Shown piece by piece: positions 4,963 through 48,798 of a DNA stretch of 64,000 nucleotides (the first letter of the stretch is position 1; each line of letters starts with the position of its first letter). The DNA is from Gammaproteobacteria bacterium (GTDB lineage: Bacteria; Pseudomonadota; Gammaproteobacteria; WOZS01): assembly GCA_011620135.1 (NCBI GenBank), contig WOZS01000058.1:31534-95533 (forward strand), given 5' to 3'. The notes under the pieces were generated by a model. The model searched no databases and was not told where the DNA came from. It saw only the letters and a list, made by a program, of their open reading frames with translations. Made by a program: the position numbers and the translations under genes.

Positions 4963-7101
4963 TTGAATGCCAAGAAAAGCGCTGTTTGGATCGGAGCACC
5001 TTATCCACTGGGTGCCACATGGGATGGTCTGGGCGTGAACTTCGCGCTCTTTTCGGATCATGCCGAAAAAGTAGAGCTGTGTCTGTTCGATGAAAGCGGC
5101 GAGCACCAGGTGGAAAGCATCACGCTGCCGGAGTGTACCGACAGGATTTTTCATGGCTATCTGCCCGAGGCCCGCCCCGGGCTGCTGTATGGCTATCGGG
5201 TCTATGGGCCCTATGACCCGCTAGCCGGCCACCGCTTCAATCACCATAAGCTGCTGCTGGATCCCTATGCCCGGGTGATTACCGATCACTTCCAGTGGCG
5301 TGACGAACACTTTGGCTATACCGTGGGCCATGAGCAGGAGGATCTCTCCTTCGATGAGCGCGACAGTGCCCCGTTTGCCTTGCGCGCCAAGGTGATCGAC
5401 CCGGCCTTCACCTGGGGCGACGACCGCAGTCCACGCATTCCCTGGCACGACACGGTGATCTATGAATGTCATGTCAAGGGCCTCACCAAGCTGCACCCGC
5501 TGGTCCCTGAGGCACTGCGGGGGACGTATGCCGCACTCGCCACCAAGCCCGTCCTCGATCATTTGAGGCAGTTGGGGGTGACGGCCATCGAGCTCATGCC
5601 GGTGCATGCCTTCATGAGGGATCGCATGCTGGTGGACCGCGGCCTCACCAACTACTGGGGCTACAATTCGATCGGCTACTTTGCCGCGGAGAACCACTAT
5701 TCCTCAACCGGCTTGGTGGGCGAGTTCAAGACCATGGTGAAAGCCATCCATGCCGCAGGCATGGAGGTGATCCTGGATGTGGTCTATAACCATACCGCAG
5801 AAGGCAATCACATGGGGCCCACGCTGTCGTTCCGGGGCATCGATAACAAGGCGTATTACCGGCTGGTGGATGGCGACCAGAGGCACTACATGGACTATAC
5901 GGGTTGCGGGAATACCCTCAACATGATGCATCCCAGGGTGCTGCAGCTGATCATGGACAGCCTGCGCTACTGGGTGCTGGAGATGCATGTGGACGGCTTC
6001 CGCTTCGACCTGGCCTCGGCGTTGGCCCGGGAGCTGCACGAGGTGGACCGCCTTGGTGCCTTTTTCGACATCATCTGCCAGGACCCGGTGCTCTCCCAGG
6101 TGAAACTGATCGCCGAGCCCTGGGACATCGGCGAGGGTGGCTACCAGGTGGGCAATTTTCCCGTGGGCTGGGCGGAATGGAACGGCAAATTCCGTGACTC
6201 GGTGCGCGCCTACTGGAAGGGTGATGGTGGCCTGATCGGCGATCTGGCCTATCGGCTCACCGGATCCAGCGATCTCTATGGGGACGATGGCCGCAGTCCA
6301 TCGGCCAGCATCAATTTTGTTACTGCCCATGACGGTTTCACCATGATGGACCTGGTCTCCTACAATTCAAAGCACAACGAGGCCAACGGCGAGGAGAACC
6401 GCGACGGCGACAACAACAACATCAGTTGGAACTGCGGCGTCGAAGGGCCCACGGACGATCCGACCATCCAGGCGTTGCGCCACCGCCAGGTGCGCAACCT
6501 CCTCGCGACCCTGTTTCTCTCCCAGGGCGTGCCCATGCTGCTCATGGGTGATGAGATGGGCCGGTCCCAGCAGGGCAACAACAACGCCTATTGCCAGGAC
6601 AACGAGCTCAGCTGGCTCGATTGGTCCCTGGTGGAACAAAACGCCGCTCTCCTGGCCTTTACCCAGCGCGCCATTGCGCTGCGCCAGCGCCATCCCGTTT
6701 TGCACCGGCGCCATTTCTTCCATGGTCGCAACATCAAGGGCCATGACATCAAGGACATCATGTGGCTCAATCCCAACGGTCACGAGCTCACCGATGAGGA
6801 ATGGGGGCATGACTTTGCCCGTTCGCTGGGCGTGTTCCTCGGTGGACATGGCTTGGATGAGCGGGATTATCAGGGCCGCCCCCTGGAAGACGACAACATG
6901 CTGCTGTTGCTCAATGCCCATGCCGACCAGGTGAGTTTCATGCTGCCCAAGCTCGCCCGCAACGGTCGTTGGACACCCCTGCTGAGCACAGCTGACACCC
7001 AGTTCAAGGCAAGCTATAGCCATGGTGTCAAGCTGGCCGTGCCAGGCCGCACCTTGATCCTGCTGGGGGACGGCCAGTATGACCATGAGAAATCCGCCTG
7101 A
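4963..7101 (+). CDS. glgX: glycogen debranching enzyme GlgX/TreX
   Basis: TTG start with AGGAG RBS. N-terminus [17 protein letters not shown] and GH13 catalytic motifs ([12 protein letters not shown]) match GlgX. Confidence 0.9.
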
Positions 7102-8909
7102 TGGAGACTCTGTTCGGGCCGCGCCTCGAGCCCGGGGGTGTCACATTCCGGCTTTGGGCGCCAGCCATCCAAGAAGGCCAGTTGGCCGTGTACCTGGAGC
7201 AGGATGGTACCAGGCTGCCCATGGTGGGCTGTGGTGAGGGTTGGTTCGAGGCACATTGTGACCAGGCCGCCCCGGGTATGCTGTACCGCTTCGATGTGGC
7301 CGGCGAACGCCTGCCAGATCCCGCCTCACGCTTCCAACCCAAGGGCGTCCATGGTCCCAGCGAGGTCATCGACCACAGCACATGGCGCTGGCACGACCAG
7401 CACTGGACGGGCCGACCCTGGACGGAGACAGTGCTCTGCGAGCTGCATGTGGGTACCTTCACCGCGGCTGGCACCTTCGCAGGCGTCATCGAGCGGTTGG
7501 ATTATCTGGCTTCCATGGGTATCACGGCCATCGAGCTCATGCCCATCGCCGCCTTTTCCGGCAAGCGCAACTGGGGATACGATGGCGTGCTGCCCTATGC
7601 GCCCTCGGAAAATTATGGGCGCCCCGAAGACCTGCAGCACTTGGTGGATCAAGCCCATCTTCGCGGGTTGATGGTCTTTCTGGATGTGGTGTACAACCAT
7701 TTCGGGCCCGATGGCAACTACCTGCACCGCTATGCGCCGCAATTGTTTACCAAGGCTTACCAGACGCCCTGGGGAGAGGCGGTGGCCTTCGAAAACGAGC
7801 AGGCCGCGCGGCGCTTTGTCATCGAAAATGCCCTGTACTGGCTGGAGCACTTCCATATCGACGGGCTGCGCCTCGATGCCGTCCATGCCATCTTTGACAG
7901 CTCGCCGGTCCATGTGCTCGACGAACTGGCAGAAGCCGTGGCCGCAGGGCCGGGCCGGACCCGGCAGATCCATCTTGTCCTGGAAAACGAGAAAAACCAG
8001 GCCCATTACCTCGGTCGTGCCCAGGGTGGCTACCGTGCCCAATGGAATGATGATGTGCATCATGCCGTGCGGGTGATCGCCACGGGTGAAAAGGAAGGAT
8101 ACTACCAAGACTATCAGGACGACCCGATCAGCCTGCTTGGCAAGGGTATTGCCGAAGGCTTCATTTATCAGGGGCAGGTCTCGCCGCACAGCGGCAAGCC
8201 GCGGGGCACGCCCAGTGCCCAGTTGCCGCCGTGGTGCTTCGTCAACTTCATCCAGAACCACGACCAGGTGGGCAACCGGGCGTTGGGCGAGCGCTTTACC
8301 ACGCTGGCGCCACGCCCGCGCCTGGAGGTGCTGCTGGGCGTGGTGCTGCTGGCTCCTGGCATTCCCATGCTGTTCATGGGTGAGGAATATGGCGAACAGG
8401 CGCCCTTCCTGTTCTTCTGTGATTTTCATGGCGCTCTTGCCGATGCGGTGCGCGAAGGCCGCCGCCGGGAGTTTGCCCATTTCTCTGCCTTTGCCGACGA
8501 GGCCTCCCGCGCTCGCATCCCGGATCCCAATGCCGCGGCCACATTCAAGCACAGCAGGCTCACCTGGCCTGCTGTGGCCGAGGGCGACACCGCCTGGTTC
8601 ATGGCGCGCTATGCCCATTTCCTGGGCCTGCGCCGGCGCTTCGTGGTGCCATGGCTCGAGGGCGCGACTCGGGGTGGCTGGATGCTGCGTGGCCCAGGAG
8701 GTGGCTTGGTGGTGCACTGGCCAATGGGGGCAGGCATGCTTTATGGTGTGACAGCCAATCTTGCAGAAAAGCCCTTGGCCATGCTGCGCCCCAAGGGGGT
8801 GTGTGTGGGCACCGTGGGTGACGTGCAAGGGATGGTGCAAGGTGCGGTGCCGGAGCTGGTGCTGGGATCATGGAGTGCTGCCTGGTGGCAGGATGGCTGC
8901 CATGGATAA
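7101..8909 (+). CDS. treZ: malto-oligosyltrehalose trehalohydrolase
   Basis: GH13 TreZ-like (FRLWAP..., DVVYNHFGP, GLRLDAV). TGATG overlap with the glgX stop. Confidence 0.85.
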   Translation: METLFGPRLEPGGVTFRLWAPAIQEGQLAVYLEQDGTRLPMVGCGEGWFEAHCDQAAPGMLYRFDVAGERLPDPASRFQPKGVHGPSEVIDHSTWRWHDQHWTGRPWTETVLCELHVGTFTAAGTFAGVIERLDYLASMGITAIELMPIAAFSGKRNWGYDGVLPYAPSENYGRPEDLQHLVDQAHLRGLMVFLDVVYNHFGPDGNYLHRYAPQLFTKAYQTPWGEAVAFENEQAARRFVIENALYWLEHFHIDGLRLDAVHAIFDSSPVHVLDELAEAVAAGPGRTRQIHLVLENEKNQAHYLGRAQGGYRAQWNDDVHHAVRVIATGEKEGYYQDYQDDPISLLGKGIAEGFIYQGQVSPHSGKPRGTPSAQLPPWCFVNFIQNHDQVGNRALGERFTTLAPRPRLEVLLGVVLLAPGIPMLFMGEEYGEQAPFLFFCDFHGALADAVREGRRREFAHFSAFADEASRARIPDPNAAATFKHSRLTWPAVAEGDTAWFMARYAHFLGLRRRFVVPWLEGATRGGWMLRGPGGGLVVHWPMGAGMLYGVTANLAEKPLAMLRPKGVCVGTVGDVQGMVQGAVPELVLGSWSAAWWQDGCHG

Positions 8910-11841
8910 TGCAAAAGCACAGGATGCTGCCGACAGCCAGGCGGCAAAGGGTGCCCAGGAGCCCCCCATACCCCGAGCCACCTACCGCATACAATTCAAC
9001 AAGGACTTCGGCTTCCGCAAGGCTGCGGCCCTGGCGCCCTATCTTGCGAGGCTCGGCATCTCCCATCTCTATGCCTCGCCCTACCTGAAGGCCCGCCCGG
9101 GCAGCAGCCATGGCTACGACATCATCGACCACAACGCCCTCAATCCCGAGCTGGGCAGCGAGAGCGACTACCAGGCCATGGTCAAGGCGCTGCAGGACCA
9201 TGGGCTGTCCCAGATTCTGGATGTGGTGCCCAACCACATGGGAGTCATGGGAGCGGACAATCAATGGTGGCTGGATGTGCTGGAAAATGGTCCGGCTTCC
9301 CAGTATGCCAATTTTTTCGACATCGACTGGTCTCCGCTCAAGAACGAACTCAAGAACAAGGTGCTGCTGCCTGTCCTGGGCAAGTCCTATGGTGAAGCCC
9401 TGGAGGCAGGAGAGCTTGTGCTGTCCTTTGACGAGGCCAGCGGCTCCTTTGCCATTCATTACTTCGAGCACCTCTTTCCCATCGACCCTGTGGACTATGC
9501 CGCCATCCTCAAGCTGAGGGAGGCCGAGCAGGCCAGGGAGATCGGAGCCAAGACCCTGCCCGAGTTCCAAAGCCTGATCTCGGCATTGGCGAAATTACCG
9601 CCGCGCAGCGCCAGGAAAAAGGAAGCCCTGGAGGAACGCGCCCGGGACAAGGACATCCTCAAGCGACGCCTCGCCTTTTTGTGGGATATGGACGATGGCG
9701 TGCAGGGCTACATCCAGAGCACCATGGCCACCTTTGCCACCGTGACCCAGCCGCTGCAGGAAAGCCCCTTGCACAGGCTGCTGGAAAATCAGGCCTATCG
9801 CCTGGCCCACTGGCGCACAGCCAGCGAGGAGGTCAATTACCGGCGCTTCTTTGATATTAACGATCTGGCAGGGATCTGCATGGAACGCCCCGAGGTCTTC
9901 GAGGCCACCCATCGGCTTATCCTGCAACTGGTGGCCGATGGTGCCCTGAGCGGCCTGCGCATCGATCATCCTGATGGCATGTATGATCCCGCCAAATACT
10001 TTACTCAGCTGCGGGACGCGGTGGCGGCCTTGGGCAGCAGGCCAGACGGCACCAGGCATCAGGTGTACCTGGTGGTGGAAAAGATTCTTGCTCCCTATGA
10101 GGGTCTGCACCGGGACTGGCCGGTTGATGGCACCACGGGCTATGTCTTTCTCAATGTGCTCAATGGCCTGTTCATCGAGGCGCGCACCATAGCCGCCCTG
10201 AGACGTTTCTATGATCGTTTCACAGGCCGCAGCAATCTCTTCGAGGAAACACTCTACGAGAGCAAGAAGCTCATCATGGCGACCACCCTGGCAAGTGAGC
10301 TTGCCGTGCTGACGAACCTGCTCGGGCGCCTGTCCGAGGCCCATCCCAAGACCCGCGACCTGACGCTGGGCAGCCTGTATCATGCCCTGATGGAGGTGGT
10401 GGCCTGTTTCCCTGTCTACCGCACGTACCGGGATGCCCAGGGTCTCGCTGAGACGGATCGGCGCTATGTGGAATGGGCGCTGGTCCAGGGCCAGAAGCGC
10501 AACCCCAACATCGAGCGCAGCGTTTTTGCCTTTTTACGCCAGGTGCTGCTGCTGGAGCTGCCCGAAGTGGAGGATTGCCCCAGCACCACTCTGTTGACCG
10601 CTCTGTTGCACTTCATCATGAAGTTGCAGCAGTTCACCGGACCTGTGATGGCCAAAGGACTGGAGGATACCGCCTCCTACAATCACCATGTCCTGGTTTC
10701 GGCCAACGAGGTGGGCGGCGATCCGGGTCGACTGGGACTGTCGGTGCGAGCCTTTCACCGCCGCAACAGCGAAAGGCTCAAGTTCTGGCCCCATGAGATG
10801 CTGGCCACCACCACCCACGACACCAAGCGCTCCGAGGATGTGCGTGCCCGCATCAACGTCATCTCCGAGATGCCCCGCCTATGGCAGAGCCGGGTGCGCC
10901 GCTGGGAAAAGCTCAATGCCATGCGCAAGGTGGAGGTGGATGAGGAAAGCCTGCCGGAGCGCAATACCGAGTATCTGTTCTACCAGACCCTGATCGGCAC
11001 CTGGCCGTTTTTTGGGGCAAACCAGGATGCGGACCGTAGCGTTTATGCACAGCGTTTGGTGGCTTATATGCTCAAGGCGGTGCGGGAGGCCAAGGGGCGT
11101 ACCTCGTGGGTGCGGCCCGACGAGGGTTATGAAAAAGCGCTGGAACAGTTCGTGCGCGCCGTGATCATGCCGCGGCGTGGGGAAGGGCGCGATCCCTTCC
11201 TGGATGATTTTTTGCCCTTTGCCGAGATGGTGGCTACATTGGGGCTGTACAACACGCTTTCCCAGGTCGTTTTGAAATACACGGTACCTGGCGTACCTGA
11301 CCTGTATCAGGGTGCTGAGCTGCTGACATTGACGCTCACAGACCCGGACAATCGCAGCCCGGTGGATTATGAGCGGCGCATGGCCATGCTGGATGAGGTG
11401 GAACACAGCAACCGGCAGCAGGGATTTACGCCACAGCCCTGGCTGAATCTGGGCGAGGCCGACCGGCTCAAGCTGCATGTCACCTCCCGTTTGCTGGGTT
11501 TGCGGCGCGACCACGCGATCGTGCTGCAACAAGGGGATTATCAGCCCGTTGCCGTGCACGGCCCCTGGCGCGACCATGCGGTGGCGTTTGCTCGTATTTA
11601 CAACAAAAGCGCCATCCTGGTGGTGGCAGGGTTGTTCTATCACCGCCTGACCAATGGGGCACAGCGCCTGCCCATTGGCCCGGTTTGGGATGGCAGTTAT
11701 CTGGATCTTCCCTGGAAGGGGCCATGGCAGGACGTATTGAGCTCCTGTCGGCACGACGATGACCAGAAAAAACTCCAGCTGTCCCATGTTTTTGCCGAGC
11801 TGCCCGTGGCAGTGCTGCGGTTCGGCATGGAGTCTTCTTGA
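8893..11841 (+). CDS. treY: malto-oligosyltrehalose synthase
   Basis: ATYRIQFNKDFGF...LYASPYLKA...DVVPNHMG are TreY motifs. The start overlaps the treZ end (ATG 8893 or 8902). Confidence 0.85.
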   Translation: MAAMDNAKAQDAADSQAAKGAQEPPIPRATYRIQFNKDFGFRKAAALAPYLARLGISHLYASPYLKARPGSSHGYDIIDHNALNPELGSESDYQAMVKALQDHGLSQILDVVPNHMGVMGADNQWWLDVLENGPASQYANFFDIDWSPLKNELKNKVLLPVLGKSYGEALEAGELVLSFDEASGSFAIHYFEHLFPIDPVDYAAILKLREAEQAREIGAKTLPEFQSLISALAKLPPRSARKKEALEERARDKDILKRRLAFLWDMDDGVQGYIQSTMATFATVTQPLQESPLHRLLENQAYRLAHWRTASEEVNYRRFFDINDLAGICMERPEVFEATHRLILQLVADGALSGLRIDHPDGMYDPAKYFTQLRDAVAALGSRPDGTRHQVYLVVEKILAPYEGLHRDWPVDGTTGYVFLNVLNGLFIEARTIAALRRFYDRFTGRSNLFEETLYESKKLIMATTLASELAVLTNLLGRLSEAHPKTRDLTLGSLYHALMEVVACFPVYRTYRDAQGLAETDRRYVEWALVQGQKRNPNIERSVFAFLRQVLLLELPEVEDCPSTTLLTALLHFIMKLQQFTGPVMAKGLEDTASYNHHVLVSANEVGGDPGRLGLSVRAFHRRNSERLKFWPHEMLATTTHDTKRSEDVRARINVISEMPRLWQSRVRRWEKLNAMRKVEVDEESLPERNTEYLFYQTLIGTWPFFGANQDADRSVYAQRLVAYMLKAVREAKGRTSWVRPDEGYEKALEQFVRAVIMPRRGEGRDPFLDDFLPFAEMVATLGLYNTLSQVVLKYTVPGVPDLYQGAELLTLTLTDPDNRSPVDYERRMAMLDEVEHSNRQQGFTPQPWLNLGEADRLKLHVTSRLLGLRRDHAIVLQQGDYQPVAVHGPWRDHAVAFARIYNKSAILVVAGLFYHRLTNGAQRLPIGPVWDGSYLDLPWKGPWQDVLSSCRHDDDQKKLQLSHVFAELPVAVLRFGMESS

Positions 11842-39605: not shown

Positions 39606-39687
39606 GGAACCTGAGGATTGCGGGATTAGGCCATGAAAAAGCAGCCATGATGCCACCTGCCGCCTGGCCACGTGAAGGAGGATTGCC

Positions 39688-39735
39688 ATGCAGGGCCACA
39701 GCATGAGACAACATCATCGACAGGGCGCGCCATGA
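39688..39735 (+). CDS. 15-codon upstream ORF (MQGHSMRQHHRQGAP) translationally coupled to the MoxR gene
   Basis: AAGGAGGA RBS 6 nt upstream of ATG 39688. Its TGA overlaps the MoxR ATG (cATGAg). The MoxR ATG has no SD of its own. Confidence 0.3.
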   Translation: MQGHSMRQHHRQGAP

Positions 39736-40703
39736 GCGTCTCCTTGCAAAAGGACAGCCGGCTTGCAAGTCCCGCCATCGTGGCCGAAGGTCTGGAGCGC
39801 CTGGGCTACATCGCCTCGCCCAGTGTGGCGACCTCGGTCTATGTGTCAGCAGCGCTGGAAAAGCCTCTCTTGGTGGAAGGCCCAGCCGGCGTGGGCAAGA
39901 CCGAGCTGGCCAAAGCACTGGCACAGTACCTGCAAAAGCCGCTGATCCGCCTGCAGTGCTATGAGGGTCTCGACGAGGCCCGGGCGCTCTACGAGTGGAA
40001 ATACGGCAAGCAGCTGCTTTATGTGCAGCTCCTCAAGGACAAGATCGCCGAGCTCACGGCAGGCACCAAAACGCTGGAGCAGGCCCTGGCAGTCATTCAT
40101 GCCCAGGATGAGCTGTTTTTCTCCAGGGACTTTCTGGAGCCCCGCCCCCTGTTGCAGTCCCTGCAGGTGCCAGGCGGTGCTGTCTTGCTGGTGGACGAGG
40201 TGGACAAGGCAGACCCGGAGTTCGAGGCCCTGTTGCTGGAGGTGCTCTCCGATTTCCAGGTGAGCATTCCCGAATTGGGCACCATCGTCGCCACGGAAAA
40301 GCCGCTGGTGGTGCTCACCAGCAACCGCGTCCGGGAGATGGGTGACGCGTTGCGTCGGCGCTGCCTGCATCTCTATCTCAACTTTCCTGATGCTGCCCTG
40401 GAAGAGCGCATCGTGGCCGCCCAGGTGCCCCAGTGCACCGCCCGGCTGCGCGCCCAACTGGTGGCCTTTGTGCATGGCCTGCGCAAGCTGGACCTGCGCA
40501 AGCTCCCCGCCGTGAGCGAGACCATCGACTGGGCACGTACCCTGGTGCTGCTGCATGCCGATCAGCTGGCTTGGGACCTGGTGCAGGATACCCTCAATGT
40601 GTTGCTCAAGTTCCAGGAGGACGCCGAGCAGGTCCATCACCAGGGCCTGCGCCTGGTGCAAGAGGCCTGCCGCGATGGACCGCACGCTGCTGCTCTTCGT
40701 TGA
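39732..40703 (+). CDS. MoxR-family AAA+ ATPase (CoxD-like)
   Basis: LLVEGPAGVGKTELAKALA Walker A, VLLVDEVDKA Walker B, about 320 aa. Confidence 0.85.
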   Translation: MSVSLQKDSRLASPAIVAEGLERLGYIASPSVATSVYVSAALEKPLLVEGPAGVGKTELAKALAQYLQKPLIRLQCYEGLDEARALYEWKYGKQLLYVQLLKDKIAELTAGTKTLEQALAVIHAQDELFFSRDFLEPRPLLQSLQVPGGAVLLVDEVDKADPEFEALLLEVLSDFQVSIPELGTIVATEKPLVVLTSNRVREMGDALRRRCLHLYLNFPDAALEERIVAAQVPQCTARLRAQLVAFVHGLRKLDLRKLPAVSETIDWARTLVLLHADQLAWDLVQDTLNVLLKFQEDAEQVHHQGLRLVQEACRDGPHAAALR

Positions 40704-42015
40704 GGCGCTGCGCCAGGCTGGGGTGCGCATCACGCCTGACGAGACCACAGACGCCTTGCGCATCGCAGGGGAGGTGGGGCTTGCCGAGCGCGATACCCTG
40801 CGTGAGGTGCTGGGTTGCACGCTGGCCAAGTCGGTGGCGGACAAACGGCGTTTCGAGGCCACGTTCCAGCGCTTCTTTGCCCTGCCGGGCTCTTCTGCCG
40901 ATTCCCCCCAGCAAACGGCACCGACAGCCGGGGCCACTGCGGACGATGCAGGCCTGCCGCAGGCCGAGCCTGCAGCTGGTGACCTGTCCCAGGAACCGGG
41001 CGTTATGATGCAGCAGCGCCTCGCCGCCGCCGCCCGGGAGATGCGCATCGACACCATCGCGCTGCCCACCCAGAAGGGCCTCTATACCCGCAGGCTGGCC
41101 ATGGCCGCAGGTGGCGAGGAGTTGGAGGCTGCCTGGCAGTTGGCCCAGCGCCAGGGCGATCTCGAGACCGCAGCGCAGCTTGCAGCCCAGGGCGAGCGGT
41201 TGCGCGCCCATGCCCGCGCCATGGTGGAGCAGGCCTATCAGCTCTACGGCAAGGGGCGCATGCAGGCCCTCAGCGACATCATCCTGCAGGAAAAGCCGCT
41301 GTCGGCGCTGGAGACCCGGGATCTCAAGCGCATGCGTCCTTTGGTGGAGGCCATGGCCCAGCGCCTCAAAGACAAGCGGCGCATCACGCGCCATCTGCGC
41401 CGCGGCACGCTGGATGTGCGGCGCACGCTGCGCGCCAACATGGGGCACGATGGCGTCCTGATGGAGGTGGCCTGGCACAGGCGGCTGCAGCAGCAGCCCA
41501 GGCTCGTGGCGCTGTGCGACGTGAGCCGTTCGGTGGAGCGTTATGTGCGCTTTTTGCTGATGCTGCTCTTCGAGCTCAAGTCGGTGATCCGCGATCTGCA
41601 GGTCTTTGCCTTTGCCGGCGATGTCGCCTGTGTCAATGAACTGTTCCAGCGGCTGAGCCTCGAGCAGGCCCTCGATGCCGTGCCCCACGCCGCCCCCGGC
41701 GGGGCCACCGACTATGGCCAGCTGTGGCGTCACATGACAGCCCATCAGCTCCATCTCTTCAACCGGCAGACCACCGTGCTGGTGCTGGGCGATGCCCGCT
41801 CCAACGACCTCGACCCGGAAGTGGCGTTGCTGCGCCGCCTCTCTGCCCAGGTGAAGCGGGTCATGTGGCTTGATCCCGAGCCACGCGTCCAGTGGGGCTG
41901 GGGGGATTCGGTCATCTGGCGTTACCGGCCGTTGCTACATGGCTTGCATGAATGTAGTACCTTGTTGCAATTGGAGCACGCCGTGAACCGGGCTCTGGTG
42001 GATTTCGGGGCATGA
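40675..42015 (+). CDS. VWA-domain protein (CoxE-like partner of the MoxR ATPase)
   Basis: Overlaps the MoxR 3' end. C-terminal VWA domain with CDVSRS MIDAS-like motif. Confidence 0.8.
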   Translation: MDRTLLLFVEALRQAGVRITPDETTDALRIAGEVGLAERDTLREVLGCTLAKSVADKRRFEATFQRFFALPGSSADSPQQTAPTAGATADDAGLPQAEPAAGDLSQEPGVMMQQRLAAAAREMRIDTIALPTQKGLYTRRLAMAAGGEELEAAWQLAQRQGDLETAAQLAAQGERLRAHARAMVEQAYQLYGKGRMQALSDIILQEKPLSALETRDLKRMRPLVEAMAQRLKDKRRITRHLRRGTLDVRRTLRANMGHDGVLMEVAWHRRLQQQPRLVALCDVSRSVERYVRFLLMLLFELKSVIRDLQVFAFAGDVACVNELFQRLSLEQALDAVPHAAPGGATDYGQLWRHMTAHQLHLFNRQTTVLVLGDARSNDLDPEVALLRRLSAQVKRVMWLDPEPRVQWGWGDSVIWRYRPLLHGLHECSTLLQLEHAVNRALVDFGA

Positions 42016-42168
42016 TGGTCATGGCGGCGCGTAGCCGCGCGTCGGGTCTGTTTGAGATTTCTTGATTTTTTGAGCCCCGCAGCCGCTATACTTTTCAGGG
42101 TAAAATCAATGCCTGCTGGCGGCGTTTATGGACGGCAGGTGATCGGGTACTGCGGTGAGGATGAGGCA

Positions 42169-42483
42169 ATGGGTATAGGCAGGATCGATGGTAAAGGGCC
42201 TCCTGTGCCGGGCGTGCGGCCAGCTGCGCTGGAAGGTAAACCGCTGGTGCAGCAGGAGCGCAGCCTTCCGGTTTCCCAGGAAGACACAGTCTCGGTCGCT
42301 TTTGGTTCCCTGGTCCAGAGGCTCGTGGCGGGTGCTGTGGAGAGCCACGCTGTGGATCCAGCACGCCTCCAGGCCTTGCGCCAGGCCATCACCGATGGCA
42401 CCTACACCATCGACCCAGACCAGATCGCCCAGCGCATGGTGGACATGGAGCGCGGCCTGTGGTTTGGTCTGCCCTGGACATAA
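42169..42483 (+). CDS. flgM: anti-sigma-28 factor FlgM
   Basis: C-terminal LQALRQAITDGTYTIDPDQIAQRMVDME is the FlgM sigma-28-binding helix; about 105 aa. Confidence 0.7.
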   Translation: MGIGRIDGKGPPVPGVRPAALEGKPLVQQERSLPVSQEDTVSVAFGSLVQRLVAGAVESHAVDPARLQALRQAITDGTYTIDPDQIAQRMVDMERGLWFGLPWT

Positions 42484-43164: not shown

Positions 43165-43950
43165 ATGAGCACTACCCAGCCATCCCCGGACCTGCACCTC
43201 CTGCACAACCGCATGGAGCGCATCGCCGTGTTGCGACGCTTATGTAAAGAACGCCGGGAGCTCTCCTGCGTGCTGCTGGATGATGAGGGTCGACCCCATG
43301 ATGACAAAATCTATCAAACCGTGATCACCGCCGTGGATGCGCAGGCCGGTCAGCTGCAGGTCAGCCCCCTCAATCCAGCCGAGGGACGGGCTGCGTTGTG
43401 CAATGGTGCCTTGTTGAGTTGTTCTGGCCAGCTGGAGCGCGAAACGATCTCTTTCACCACCAACTGGCTCAGGAACGTCGGTCTTCTCAGGGTTCACCAC
43501 GTCCTGGCTCTGCCGCATAGCATCTACTCCAGCGAATCGCGCCAGGCGGAACGTATCGAGGTGCCCAAGACGGTGCCCTCCAAGCTGGTTCTGCATGATG
43601 GTCCGCGACAGGTGGCCCAGGGCTGGGTTGCCGACATTTCCGCAGGTGGCGTCTCTGGCGTGGTGACCGCCATAGAGGATCTGGATTACCTTTTGGCCCC
43701 AGGTACCGAACTGTTCCCCTGTTCGCTTGAGATCAAGGGCTACCTGCAGTTGACTCAATGGCGACTGAGGCTGCGCTTGGTGCGCTGGAGGCAGCAGCGC
43801 GATTATCTGCTGGGAGGCGAATTCGTGCAGCTGACACCGCAAGCCCAACGCGATGTGGAGCTGGCAGTGGCCGAGCTGGAGCGCGTGCGCTTGGCACAGT
43901 TGGCGCAGATGCATGAAGAGCAATCCGGGCAGCAGTCCGGAGGGGGCTAA
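43165..43950 (+). CDS. PilZ-domain flagellar brake protein (YcgR/FlgZ-like)
   Basis: RQAER (RxxxR) and DISAGG (DxSxGG) c-di-GMP binding motifs with an N-terminal YcgR-like domain, between flgMN and fliC as in Pseudomonas flgZ. Confidence 0.7.
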   Translation: MSTTQPSPDLHLLHNRMERIAVLRRLCKERRELSCVLLDDEGRPHDDKIYQTVITAVDAQAGQLQVSPLNPAEGRAALCNGALLSCSGQLERETISFTTNWLRNVGLLRVHHVLALPHSIYSSESRQAERIEVPKTVPSKLVLHDGPRQVAQGWVADISAGGVSGVVTAIEDLDYLLAPGTELFPCSLEIKGYLQLTQWRLRLRLVRWRQQRDYLLGGEFVQLTPQAQRDVELAVAELERVRLAQLAQMHEEQSGQQSGGG

Positions 43951-44085
43951 ACATCACGGCGGTATTGCCGCTCAATAAGCACGAGACATAGGTTTTGGGG
44001 GATCTCAGAAGCCCCATCTGAGCAATCGAGGCTACCAAAAGCTTGACTGCATTGTTTTTTATATCGAGCATCGAGCTTGATGTGT

Positions 44086-44114
44086 TAAGGAAAGTGTTAA
44101 GGAATGTATAAGGA
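44086..44114 (+). promoter_or_regulatory. three tandem TAAGGA motifs in the fliC 5' leader (candidate CsrA/RsmA sites)
   Basis: GTGTTAAGGAAA / GTGTTAAGGAAT / GTATAAGGAGAA repeat units at 44086-91, 44098-103 and 44109-14. The last overlaps the SD, 10 nt before the ATG. Confidence 0.3.
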
Positions 44115-44123
44115 GAAAGCAGT

Positions 44124-45263
44124 ATGATCGTTGTGAATACCAACCCAACATCGCTTCTGGCGCAAAACAATCTCACCCAAAGCACCAGTAGCCTGACCCA
44201 GGCCATCAACCGGCTCTCGTCTGGCTCGCGGATCAATAGCGCAGCCGATGATCCTGCCGGCCTTGCGGTGGCCTCGCCTCTGCAGTCCCGGGTGGCCGGC
44301 CTGTACCAGGCGAGCCGCAACGCATTGGAATCCACCAACGTGACCGACATCGCCGACAGCGCCCTCAGCGTGATGCAGGACAACCTTACCCGTATCCGCC
44401 AGATATCCGTACAGGCTGCCAACGGCATCTATAACAAGCAGAATCGTGCCAATCTCCAGCTCGAGGTGGATCAGCTGACCCAGGAAATCTCCCGCCTCGT
44501 CAAGAGCACCAACTACAACGGCTACCAGCTGTTAGGCTCCAAAAAGTCGCAGTTTACCTTCCAGATCGGTTCCGATGGCGATGGCTCCAAGACAGTCAGC
44601 TCGAGAAAGGCCGCCAAGGTGAACGGCAAGGACGCAATGACCCGGCAAGGCCCTTCGACCAAATACCAGGTCATCAACGGCGAGCGGTTGCGCCAATCTG
44701 CTGTGAGGCCTGCCGGGAATGCAACCAACACCATCACCTCAAGCTTCAATAAGCTGACGGGCAAGGGCAAGCATACGCCTGATTTCATCAGCAAACCCCT
44801 GAACATAGTGACAAACCTTACAAACAAAACATTGAATGTGACGGGGAAAGTCGGGAACGCTCTCACACTGGGCAGGGTCGAGGCCTTCGGCAACTTGGCG
44901 ACCAGGGCGCCAGCTGGCAAGGGGCTCAATACCTATGACGGCAATCTGGCTGCCACGGGCTCGCTCAGTGTCAAGACCCAGTCTGCGGCGCGGCAGACCA
45001 TCAAGGATGTCACCAGCGACGTCGATCTGGTCACCGCGACCCGCGCCCAGTTCGGTGCGTTGGCAAACCGCTTTGCGTATGTGCAGCGCACCAATGATGC
45101 GGCGTCCCAGGCCTCGGAGAGCTCCATCAGTCGCATCATGGATGCCGACTACGCTCGAGAGAGCGCCAACTATGCGTCTTCCCAGATCCGTCAGCAAGCA
45201 GGTGCCGCGGTGTTGGCCCAGGCTAACGCCATGCCGCAGATTGCGCTTACGCTGCTGCGGTAA
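44124..45263 (+). CDS. fliC: flagellin
   Basis: N-terminal NTNPTSLLAQNNL..LSSGSRINSAADDPAG and C-terminal ...QQAGAAVLAQANAMPQIALTLLR flagellin domains. AT-richer central variable region. Confidence 0.95.
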   Translation: MIVVNTNPTSLLAQNNLTQSTSSLTQAINRLSSGSRINSAADDPAGLAVASPLQSRVAGLYQASRNALESTNVTDIADSALSVMQDNLTRIRQISVQAANGIYNKQNRANLQLEVDQLTQEISRLVKSTNYNGYQLLGSKKSQFTFQIGSDGDGSKTVSSRKAAKVNGKDAMTRQGPSTKYQVINGERLRQSAVRPAGNATNTITSSFNKLTGKGKHTPDFISKPLNIVTNLTNKTLNVTGKVGNALTLGRVEAFGNLATRAPAGKGLNTYDGNLAATGSLSVKTQSAARQTIKDVTSDVDLVTATRAQFGALANRFAYVQRTNDAASQASESSISRIMDADYARESANYASSQIRQQAGAAVLAQANAMPQIALTLLR

Positions 45264-45276
45264 GGCCTTCATGTCC

Positions 45277-45308
45277 CCAGAACCGGCGTCTCCAGGCGCC
45301 GGTTCTGG
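45277..45308 (+). terminator. strong hairpin downstream of fliC (terminator candidate, weak U-tract)
   Basis: CCAGAACCGGCG-tctccagg-CGCCGGTTCTGG, a perfect 12-bp stem, 13 nt after the fliC stop. Confidence 0.45.
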
Positions 45309-47712: not shown

Positions 47713-48140
47713 GCACAGATCCTGATGACCGAGGAAGAAGGCCCATGAGAGACGATGCCGCCCGCCAGGGCTACCTGGAGGCCAACCGGGATGCTCTTGC
47801 GGCCCAAGTGGATTCCCCTATACGCATTATACTGACGCTATTCAATGAGAGCCTTGCTGCCATAGCCAAGGCCCAGGCGGCATTACGCTGCGCCGATCGG
47901 GAAATTTTCAAGGAACAGGTGATCCGAAGCGTGACCATCATCGAAGGGCTGCGGATACATCTTGATTATGAGCGTGGTGGAGAGGTGGCAGTCAGCCTCG
48001 GTAAGGTCTATGACTGTGTGGTGGCGCGCCTTCTGGAGGCACACCGCTGCCGGGATAAAGCCCTGCTCCAGGAGGCTATCCAGTTGCTCGAGGTGGTTCG
48101 CGATGCCTGGGGTGAGCTCCTGCAAGCCACACAGACCTGA
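47709..48140 (+). CDS. fliS: flagellar export chaperone FliS
   Basis: Four-helix FliS pattern (..II.GL...LDYERGGEVA..L..VY.Y...RL..A). ATGA overlap with fliD. Confidence 0.85.
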   Translation: MSTDPDDRGRRPMRDDAARQGYLEANRDALAAQVDSPIRIILTLFNESLAAIAKAQAALRCADREIFKEQVIRSVTIIEGLRIHLDYERGGEVAVSLGKVYDCVVARLLEAHRCRDKALLQEAIQLLEVVRDAWGELLQATQT

Positions 48141-48159
48141 GGCGCGTTGCCACTGGCTG

Positions 48160-48462
48160 TTGCGTGCCGCCCGGGGGGCCCGGGAGGCCGCGCTGGATGG
48201 TCGGCTTGATGATGTACGGCTGCAGTGCATGGTGGTGCAACTGCTGCTGGTGCGGCTGGACCGCGGCCTCACTGGGCCATCCCCCATGCAAAGCCAGGCT
48301 CTGATCGAGGTTCATGAGATCATGTTGGCCGTTGAGGCCGCATTGGCGGCACAGCGCCTGGAGGTGCTCATGCGCCTGGAAGGTATTGCCTGTGCTGCAG
48401 AATATCATGATGCATTGCAGTCCAACCGGCGGCGTGCATCGCAGCCTGGCTTTTTAGTATGA
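48160..48462 (+). CDS. hypothetical helical protein in the fliT position (possible FliT-like chaperone, TTG start)
   Basis: In-frame open region after fliS with high-GC codon bias. About 100 aa, predicted all-helical. No ATG; TTG at 48160 or CTG at 48157. Confidence 0.3.
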   Translation: MRAARGAREAALDGRLDDVRLQCMVVQLLLVRLDRGLTGPSPMQSQALIEVHEIMLAVEAALAAQRLEVLMRLEGIACAAEYHDALQSNRRRASQPGFLV

Positions 48463-48492: not shown

Positions 48493-48798
48493 ATGGCACG
48501 GCAAGGAGTCCAGAAGAAGCCCATCGATATCGTGCTCGATGCGCAGTTGAGCATGGCCAGCGCGCGAGCCTTGAAGGAGCGCTTGCTCTATGGGTTGAAG
48601 CAGGGCTCGAAGGTGCGGCTGCAGGGGGAGCTCGTGGAGCGAATCGACACGGCCTGCGCCCAGGTGCTGGCCAGTTTTTTTCGAACAGCGCAACAAGAAG
48701 GACGGCCTGTGGCATGGCTTGGCGTGAGCCTCCCTCTGGAGCGTGCTCTCAATCGCGCCGGACTTGCTGACCTTCTCGAGCCCCGGGAAAGGCAATAA
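48493..48798 (+). CDS. STAS-domain protein (anti-sigma-factor antagonist-like)
   Basis: 101 aa, SpoIIAA-like pattern, directly upstream of cheA. Confidence 0.6.
   Translation: MARQGVQKKPIDIVLDAQLSMASARALKERLLYGLKQGSKVRLQGELVERIDTACAQVLASFFRTAQQEGRPVAWLGVSLPLERALNRAGLADLLEPRERQ

Follow-up and report, generated by a model that had tools for sequence, protein, structure and literature searches.

Three TAAGGA units ahead of a flagellin start codon: a strong ribosome-binding region with young Shine-Dalgarno-like copies, or a CsrA target?

In the 64-kb stretch of contig WOZS01000058.1 analyzed here (the window), the flagellin gene fliC is preceded by three closely spaced TAAGGA motifs, the last of which lies in the Shine-Dalgarno (SD) sequence. 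The question raised by this locus is whether the array is a site of translational control by CsrA (RsmA), as a preliminary description of the DNA had proposed, or a more ordinary part of a strong ribosome-binding region. Judged from sequence, the resemblance of the motifs to CsrA sites is genuine, yet we found no sign of a conserved control device among relatives. The reading we favor, to which we give a probability of roughly one half, is that of an ordinary strong ribosome-binding region whose young SD-like repeats act, if at all, as a single-stranded spacer for ribosome loading. The third unit is a genuine SD sequence, and on this reading the two upstream copies are not a dedicated, conserved regulatory device and the leader is a further instance of an already known kind of feature.

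The TAAGGA array and its conservation

The gene and the three units ahead of it are as follows.

44124-45263, forward strand: fliC, flagellin of 379 amino acids (aa), with Pfam matches to Flagellin_N (3.5e-31) and Flagellin_C (3.6e-15)
44082-44093, forward strand: repeat copy 1, GTGTTAAGGAAA, with TAAGGA at 44086-44091 and a predicted anti-SD duplex of -7.0 kcal/mol
44094-44105, forward strand: repeat copy 2, GTGTTAAGGAAT, with TAAGGA at 44098-44103 and a predicted anti-SD duplex of -6.1 kcal/mol
44106-44117, forward strand: repeat copy 3, GTATAAGGAGAA, which holds the SD TAAGGAG (44109-44115) and has a predicted anti-SD duplex of -9.3 kcal/mol

The anatomy of the array is plain. The segment 44082-44126 reads GTGTTAAGGAAA GTGTTAAGGAAT GTATAAGGAGAA AGCAGT ATG, and the array ends 6 nucleotides (nt) short of the ATG at 44124. 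Three TAAGGA repeats with a spacing of 11-12 nt, ending at the ribosome-binding site with the last overlapping the SD, had been described, and this description is borne out: the cores begin at 44086, 44098, and 44109 (the third spanning 44109-44114), with start-to-start spacings of 12 and 11 nt and 23 nt for the outer pair, and the third core runs on to TAAGGAG, 8 nt ahead of the ATG. The further characterization as a near-perfect triple repeat suits the first two units, which match at 11 of 12 positions, but not the third, which differs by a 1-nt deletion and two substitutions. Tandem Repeats Finder reported a period of 12, with 1.9 copies that match exactly or 2.8 that match at 86%, and a two-copy family of the same period was also found by a separate repeat search.

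Chance is a poor explanation for the triple AAGGA, as had been claimed. Three AAGGA motifs within 40 nt occur at a single site on the two strands of the window, where 0.06 would be expected from the window-wide rate, and at least three are present in just 0.16% of mononucleotide shuffles of the leader. Nevertheless, such statistics, which assume independent draws, do not supply the right null for a tandem repeat and overstate its significance, because local duplication or homogenization yields tandem repeats without selection.

Ten distinct leaders of relatives, taken from syntenic loci (designated here by L numbers), were compared with that of the window. The fliC homologs in these flgM-flgN-PilZN-fliC-flaG-fliD-fliS loci are 53-99% identical to the window's; they comprise metagenomic flagellin homologs at 53-93% identity, plus one at 99% that was found as a cluster member. 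A scan of GTDB species representatives for flagellin returned distant matches only (31-38% identity), and searches of the JGI metagenomes with a DNA pattern across the SD and start codon and with a PilZN-protein alignment returned no matches.

The phylogenetic distribution of the three units is uneven. AAGGAGA-N7-ATG is invariant in all ten leaders (10/10), and the upstream copies are confined to the relatives with at least 93% flagellin identity, L016 and L004. The leader of L016 (99%) is identical to that of the window, both upstream units included, and L004 (93%) has both units but departs from the window by one substitution, plus an insertion of 1 nt between copies 1 and 2. L011 (81%) does not have copy 2, and its contig ends short of the copy-1 position; at 76% flagellin identity and below both units are missing (L005, L008, L017, L006, L012, L013, and L015). 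A lack of conservation in related strains had been named beforehand as evidence against CsrA control, and it is found for the upstream copies but not for the SD unit.

One older upstream GGA, in the context ATC(A)GGAA, lies 17-42 nt ahead of the SD GGA in L005, L008, L017, and L013. The last ~150 nt of the leader of L015 differ from those of L013 by three substitutions, two of which destroy this GGA, and in L006 and L012 the last 60 nt ahead of the start codon contain no upstream GGA. By hand count, the copy-1 GGA of the window and the ATCGGAAAT GGA of L005 both lie 35 nt ahead of the ATG. Because the SD unit of L005, GTGTTAAGGAGA, matches copy 1 of the window at 11 of 12 positions, the comparison suggests that the copies derive from the SD module.

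Base composition is more widely shared than the repeats. The 45 nt upstream of the SD have a GC content of 33-44% in eight of nine lineages (51% in L012), in loci of 57-63% GC, and the comparison with relatives shows the SD and this AT-rich spacer to be the only parts apparently maintained. When the window is compared with L004, the PilZN gene, fliC, and flaG have diverged by 9-10% at their fourfold-degenerate sites, and the 173 nt of intergenic region show 4 substitutions and 1 indel. Because there are only 3 changes in the 137 nt outside the repeats, compared with 9-10% at fourfold-degenerate sites, this part of the intergenic region appears to be under constraint. The repeat segment, with 2 changes in 36 nt, is indistinguishable from neutral.

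Promoter and predicted structure of the leader

The elements upstream of the array are listed below.

43948-43974, forward strand: candidate sigma-28 (FliA)-type promoter, TAAA-N15-GCCGCTCA, recognized by pattern match and conservation
43982-44123, forward strand: putative fliC 5' leader of ~140 nt, placed by the position of the promoter
43996-44016, forward strand: leader hairpin A (UGGGG...CCCCA), in the minimum free energy (MFE) and centroid structures, with a GGGG/CCCC stem also in relatives' long leaders
44051-44060, forward strand: U-rich tract, AUUGUUUUUU, predicted to pair with 44114-44123 and, in L006, with the equivalent segment
44060-44084, forward strand: leader hairpin B (UAUAUCGAGC-AUCGA-GCUUGAUGUG), in the MFE and centroid structures

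The FliA consensus is TAAA-N15-GCCGATAA. At 43948-43974 the window reads TAAACATCACGGCGGTATTGCCGCTCA, with a candidate -10 element that agrees with this consensus at 6 of 8 positions and a TAAA that shares bases with the stop codon ending the upstream PilZN/YcgR-like gene. The pattern TAAA-N15-GCCGNTNW has one match in the 64 kb, where 0.09 would be expected, and exactly one match, at the same position, in every relative that covers the region; in L004-L012, L015, and L016 the promoter takes the form TAAA-N15-GCCGCT(C/G)(A/T) over the PilZN/YcgR-like stop codon. From the position of this sigma-28-like promoter and the known FliA consensus, we infer that transcription probably starts near 43981, which would give a leader of about 140 nt in place of the 60 nt assumed previously. 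The corresponding promoter of more distant relatives lies 300-350 nt upstream of the start codon. No sigma-70-like promoter was found nearer to fliC than 43948-43974. A sigma-54 GG-N10-GC motif, judged by eye, was dropped because its spacing differs between the window and L006.

The preliminary description had proposed structure prediction as a check on whether the GGAs lie in loops, and the outcome was negative: none of the GGAs sits in an apical hairpin loop in the predicted folds of the leader. In the centroid structures the repeats are unpaired and lie just 3' of hairpin B, the 3' arm of which covers the first 3 nt of copy 1, and relatives have a GAGC...GCUC hairpin at the corresponding site. 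The pairing-probability ensemble shows the GGAs as just partly accessible, with partial pairing to the U tract. Changing the GGAs of copies 1 and 2 in silico moved the opening energy of the SD from 4.75 to 5.1 or 4.0 kcal/mol, removal of the 24-nt spacer raised it from 4.75 to 8.6 kcal/mol, and mutation of the U tract shifted it by less than 1 kcal/mol.

How the copies arose, and what they might do in translation, we infer as follows. The region would be the translation-initiation region of a sigma-28-driven flagellin mRNA, and the two upstream GTGTTAAGGAA units would be evolutionarily young copies of the SD module that arose via local duplication or sequence homogenization, within the AT-rich, weakly structured stretch between the last leader hairpin and the SD. 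In the immediate lineage of the window, part of the AT-rich spacer may thus have been recently overwritten by two SD-module copies, while the conserved property would be the AT-rich single-stranded stretch and not the GGA motifs. Most likely, 30S subunits use this stretch as a landing (standby) surface on an mRNA of very high expression. The additional units may contribute weaker anti-SD complementarity and keep the spacer unstructured, and any translational effect of theirs would go through the ribosome and not through a dedicated regulator.

A single-stranded standby surface upstream of the SD sets translation rates (PMC3936740), and the leader resembles standby sites and AU-rich single-stranded leaders (PMC3936740) in that an AT-rich, single-stranded segment separates a leader hairpin from the SD. 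It is the presence of the spacer, not its exact sequence, that affects predicted SD accessibility here, and low GC is kept across relatives. In contrast, standby sites are not normally built of SD-like repeats, and the likeness in the present case is known from sequence and predicted folds.

Several points weigh against the strong-initiation reading. The fold z-scores are unremarkable (-0.4 to -1.6), which makes "unstructured" a weak description. A standby or enhancer role for the copies comes from modeling only, and they may be neutral; strong upstream SD-like decoys could even reduce correct initiation instead of helping it. The AAGGA cores are unchanged in all three repeat-bearing genomes, among which divergence is too small to judge either way. 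Finally, the upstream GGA that L005, L008, L017, and L013 have in common, 17-42 nt from the SD GGA, could reflect an older two-site layout for binding of a protein.

Some features of the leaders stand apart from the array. In the more distant relatives the fliC leaders are 300-350 nt long and carry two hairpins, TCTGCATG-N4-CATGCAGA and GGGGT-N11-ACCCC, which are strongly conserved and have GGA motifs at their flanks. The leaders with these hairpins are the following.

L005 9860-10003: leader with conserved hairpins
L008 7835-7966: leader with conserved hairpins
L017 60-204: leader with conserved hairpins
L013 165-318: leader with conserved hairpins
L015 3725-3878: leader with conserved hairpins

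RNAalifold recovered the hairpins in these 5 sequences with 0 compensatory pairs, and they had no Rfam match. The first of them is lost in the window, L004, and L006. They may represent an undescribed flagellin-leader RNA element, or else mere stabilizing stem-loops. With Rfam 15 at the gathering threshold, the window gave two tRNAs only and the loci of three relatives gave no matches; the best hit of a permissive Rfam scan of the leader was freshwater-2 at 16.1 bits (E=3.7), compared with a gathering score of 49.9 bits.

CsrA and other explanations for the repeats

The explanation put forward by the preliminary description is translational control by CsrA/RsmA. A CsrA dimer would span two of the AAGGA sites, that over the SD included, and block binding of the 30S subunit; in a variant of this, the abundant fliC mRNA might titrate CsrA. 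We regard this explanation as doubtful. The working range for the distance between the two sites of a CsrA dimer is 10-63 nt. With three A(A)GGA motifs, one of them over the SD, the leader has spacings of 12, 11, and 23 nt that suit a dimer, the outer 23 nt being near the 18-nt optimum (PMC4894983). The motif also resembles the (C/A)A(A/T)GGA consensus of Campylobacter jejuni (PMC4894983), and the layout parallels those of Bacillus subtilis hag and C. jejuni flaA, which have two sites each, one of them at the SD (PMC7652899, PMC4894983). The older upstream GGA of L005, L008, L017, and L013 fits a second site as well. The best named relatives of the window's MnmE are Gammaproteobacteria, at just 45-49% identity (Thiohalomonadaceae, Methylophaga, and Piscirickettsiaceae), and the lineage therefore looks gammaproteobacterial, which is a class where CsrA is common (PMC4894983, PMC13443453). 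The motif count, the overlap with the SD, and the 11-23 nt spacing of the proposed CsrA/RsmA site thus stand, whereas presentation in loops and conservation do not.

With respect to loops, the GGA was in a loop in 51 of 55 CsrA ligands selected by SELEX (PMC7652899), whereas the GGAs here are outside the predicted hairpin loops. With respect to conservation, the extra sites are confined to relatives with at least 93% flagellin identity, and the older GGA has been lost in L015 through two substitutions in an otherwise near-identical leader and is absent within 60 nt of the start in L006 and L012. Furthermore, any strong SD contains GGA, which makes one of the three "sites" uninformative.

The regulator and its partners were not encountered either. 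Searches by tblastn with the CsrA proteins of Escherichia coli, Pseudomonas aeruginosa, and B. subtilis against the window and 17 loci gave nothing at E<0.7. FliW had no Pfam match among the open reading frames (ORFs) of the flagellar cluster or the other ORFs of 100-190 aa scanned in the window, and it is not among the precomputed Pfam labels of the relatives' genes. The checks for csrA and fliW that had been suggested therefore came back negative for both genes in the window and the relatives' loci. Pfam scans of the flagellar-cluster and small ORFs turned up no regulators, FlbT/FlaF-type ones included, the remainder of the window, annotated with Pfam, had no Gac/Csr components, and Rfam showed no Csr/Rsm small RNA (sRNA) in the window or the relatives' loci. 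That csrA, fliW, and Csr/Rsm sRNA are missing from the window and these loci counts against CsrA control or at least lends it no support, as do the reported absence of fliW from Gammaproteobacteria (PMC7652899) and the case of Legionella, where CsrA acts on fleQ and fleR and flaA was not recovered by RNA immunoprecipitation sequencing (RIP-seq) (PMC5338858).

Among the closest known systems, B. subtilis hag, with its CsrA-FliW partner switch (Yakhnin 2007, Mukherjee 2011 per PMC7652899), shares with the window more than one GGA in a flagellin leader, one over the SD, and membership of the late flagellar (sigma-28/SigD-type) gene class. However, the hag sites are two GGA-containing stem-loops (PMC13443453) and FliW is needed, whereas the GGAs here are predicted to be single-stranded, the 64 kb yielded neither fliW nor csrA, the extra sites are unconserved, and the lineage is seemingly gammaproteobacterial. 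The 5' untranslated region of C. jejuni flaA has ANGGA motifs ~21 nt apart in a sigma-28-dependent flagellin mRNA, the second over the ribosome-binding site, and it can also titrate CsrA (PMC4894983). In contrast to the ~140-nt leader here, in which the motifs are in an unstructured tract and the SD alone is conserved, the flaA leader is 45 nt long, with both motifs in hexaloops and compensatory changes across species (PMC4894983). By likeness to Csr/Rsm motility control in Gammaproteobacteria (E. coli flhDC; Legionella fleQ/fleR, PMC5338858), a CsrA in this organism, if present, would be of the sRNA-antagonized and not of the FliW type; CsrA acts there on master regulators, not on the flagellin leader, and flaA of Legionella is not a RIP-seq target.

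If the CsrA reading were true, the locus would be a rare instance in which Csr directly controls a flagellin leader and the host is a gammaproteobacterium lacking FliW, and one at an early evolutionary stage, with binding sites made by expansion of an SD repeat. A fuller version, which we consider improbable, is that in a deep-branching gammaproteobacterium without FliW, CsrA/RsmA directly represses flagellin at three tandem unstructured AAGGA sites of very recent origin, produced when the SD module expanded into a repeat, with the abundant fliC mRNA doubling as a CsrA sponge. Were the sponge reading to hold, the Csr regulon would be tied to flagellin transcription in a newly evolved, FliW-independent circuit of the hag/flaA type. 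At present, the value of the locus is mainly cautionary: motif counting alone overcalls Csr targets, because strong SDs contain GGA and short tandem copies of an SD mimic CsrA sites.

An intramolecular switch is very unlikely. Here the U-rich tract at 44051-44060 would occlude the segment from the SD to the AUG, and the purine-rich upstream copies would compete for it and keep the SD open. The tract AUUGUUUUUU does pair with AGAAAGCAGU (44114-44123) in the MFE and centroid structures of the window, L006 (about 9960-10003) forms a corresponding helix, in which one double change from U-A to A-U can be read by eye, and in L004 the U tract pairs with copy 1 instead. Against this, mutating either the U tract or the copy-1 and copy-2 GGAs in silico moves the SD opening energy by less than 1 kcal/mol, z-scores are about -0.4, and the tract is present in just three distinct sequences and missing from L005-type leaders.

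Similarly small is the chance that the copies serve translational coupling through a short upstream ORF, with copy 1 as its SD.

44104-44127, forward strand: possible 7-codon upstream ORF (MYKEKAV), ATG TAT AAG GAG AAA GCA GTA TGA, the UGA of which overlaps the fliC AUG as AUGA

This ORF is present in the window, L016, and L004, with the copy-1 TAAGGA 12 nt ahead of its AUG, and upstream ORFs in the same frame that end at AUGA occur in L006, L012, and L013/L015. It is missing in L005, L008, and L017, however, and is not a conserved feature; start codons and lengths vary among lineages, and the frame is open mainly owing to the purine-rich SD region. Moreover, copy 2 adjoins the AUG, and the distance of copy 1 from it is suboptimal.

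A DNA-level operator, in which a transcription factor on the 12-bp direct repeats acts as a roadblock downstream of the promoter, has in its favor that the direct repeats recur about once per helical turn, but we give it hardly any credence, with a position about +100 to +135 from the presumed start, no conservation beyond near-identical genomes, adjacent candidate regulators limited to FlgM, FlgN, and the PilZN protein, and one repeat that is simply the SD. An Hfq (ARN)n reading of the purine tract, judged by eye, was dropped for want of a consistent A-R-N register.

The surrounding locus

The gene order in the window is MoxR-AAA, VWA_CoxE, flgM, flgN, PilZN/YcgR-like, fliC, flaG, fliD, fliS, an unknown ORF, STAS, cheA, cheW, and parA-like; beyond the parA-like gene, per the gene labels of relatives, come rpmH-rnpA, yidC, mnmE, and mnmG. 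A perfect 12-bp stem-loop, CCAGAACCGGCG-TCTCCAGG-CGCCGGTTCTGG, lies at 45277-45308, 14 nt past the fliC stop codon, is not followed by a T run, and is kept in L004 with one loop change. It is likely a 3' stabilizer or an atypical terminator.

The ORF directly 3' of fliS (47962-48462) has no Pfam match and is kept in all relatives, where it is 119-120 aa long; a FliT-like chaperone and an unknown flagellar factor are both conceivable identities for its product. Next come a STAS-domain protein at 48493-48798 and then cheA-cheW-parA-like. On the other side of the cluster, a MoxR-type AAA ATPase and a VWA_CoxE protein (39672-42015) are encoded directly upstream of flgM, an unusual neighbor for a late flagellar gene cluster. 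The pair is kept where the contigs of relatives reach, in full in L005-L008 and with at least the VWA gene in L004, L012, and L015. The listed flgM ORF itself (42052-42483) is 143 aa long and has a TTG start, with a 104-aa FlgM in most relatives and one of 143 aa in L012; the 143-aa ORF is probably too long, and an internal ATG (MGIGRIDGK...) suits the 104-aa length.

Farther from the flagellar genes, three genes of the alpha-amylase family stand in a row at 4963-11841, the first with a CBM48 domain. The trio looks like a GlgX / TreY / TreZ-type glycogen-to-trehalose set; the glycogen genes of E. coli are classical CsrA targets.

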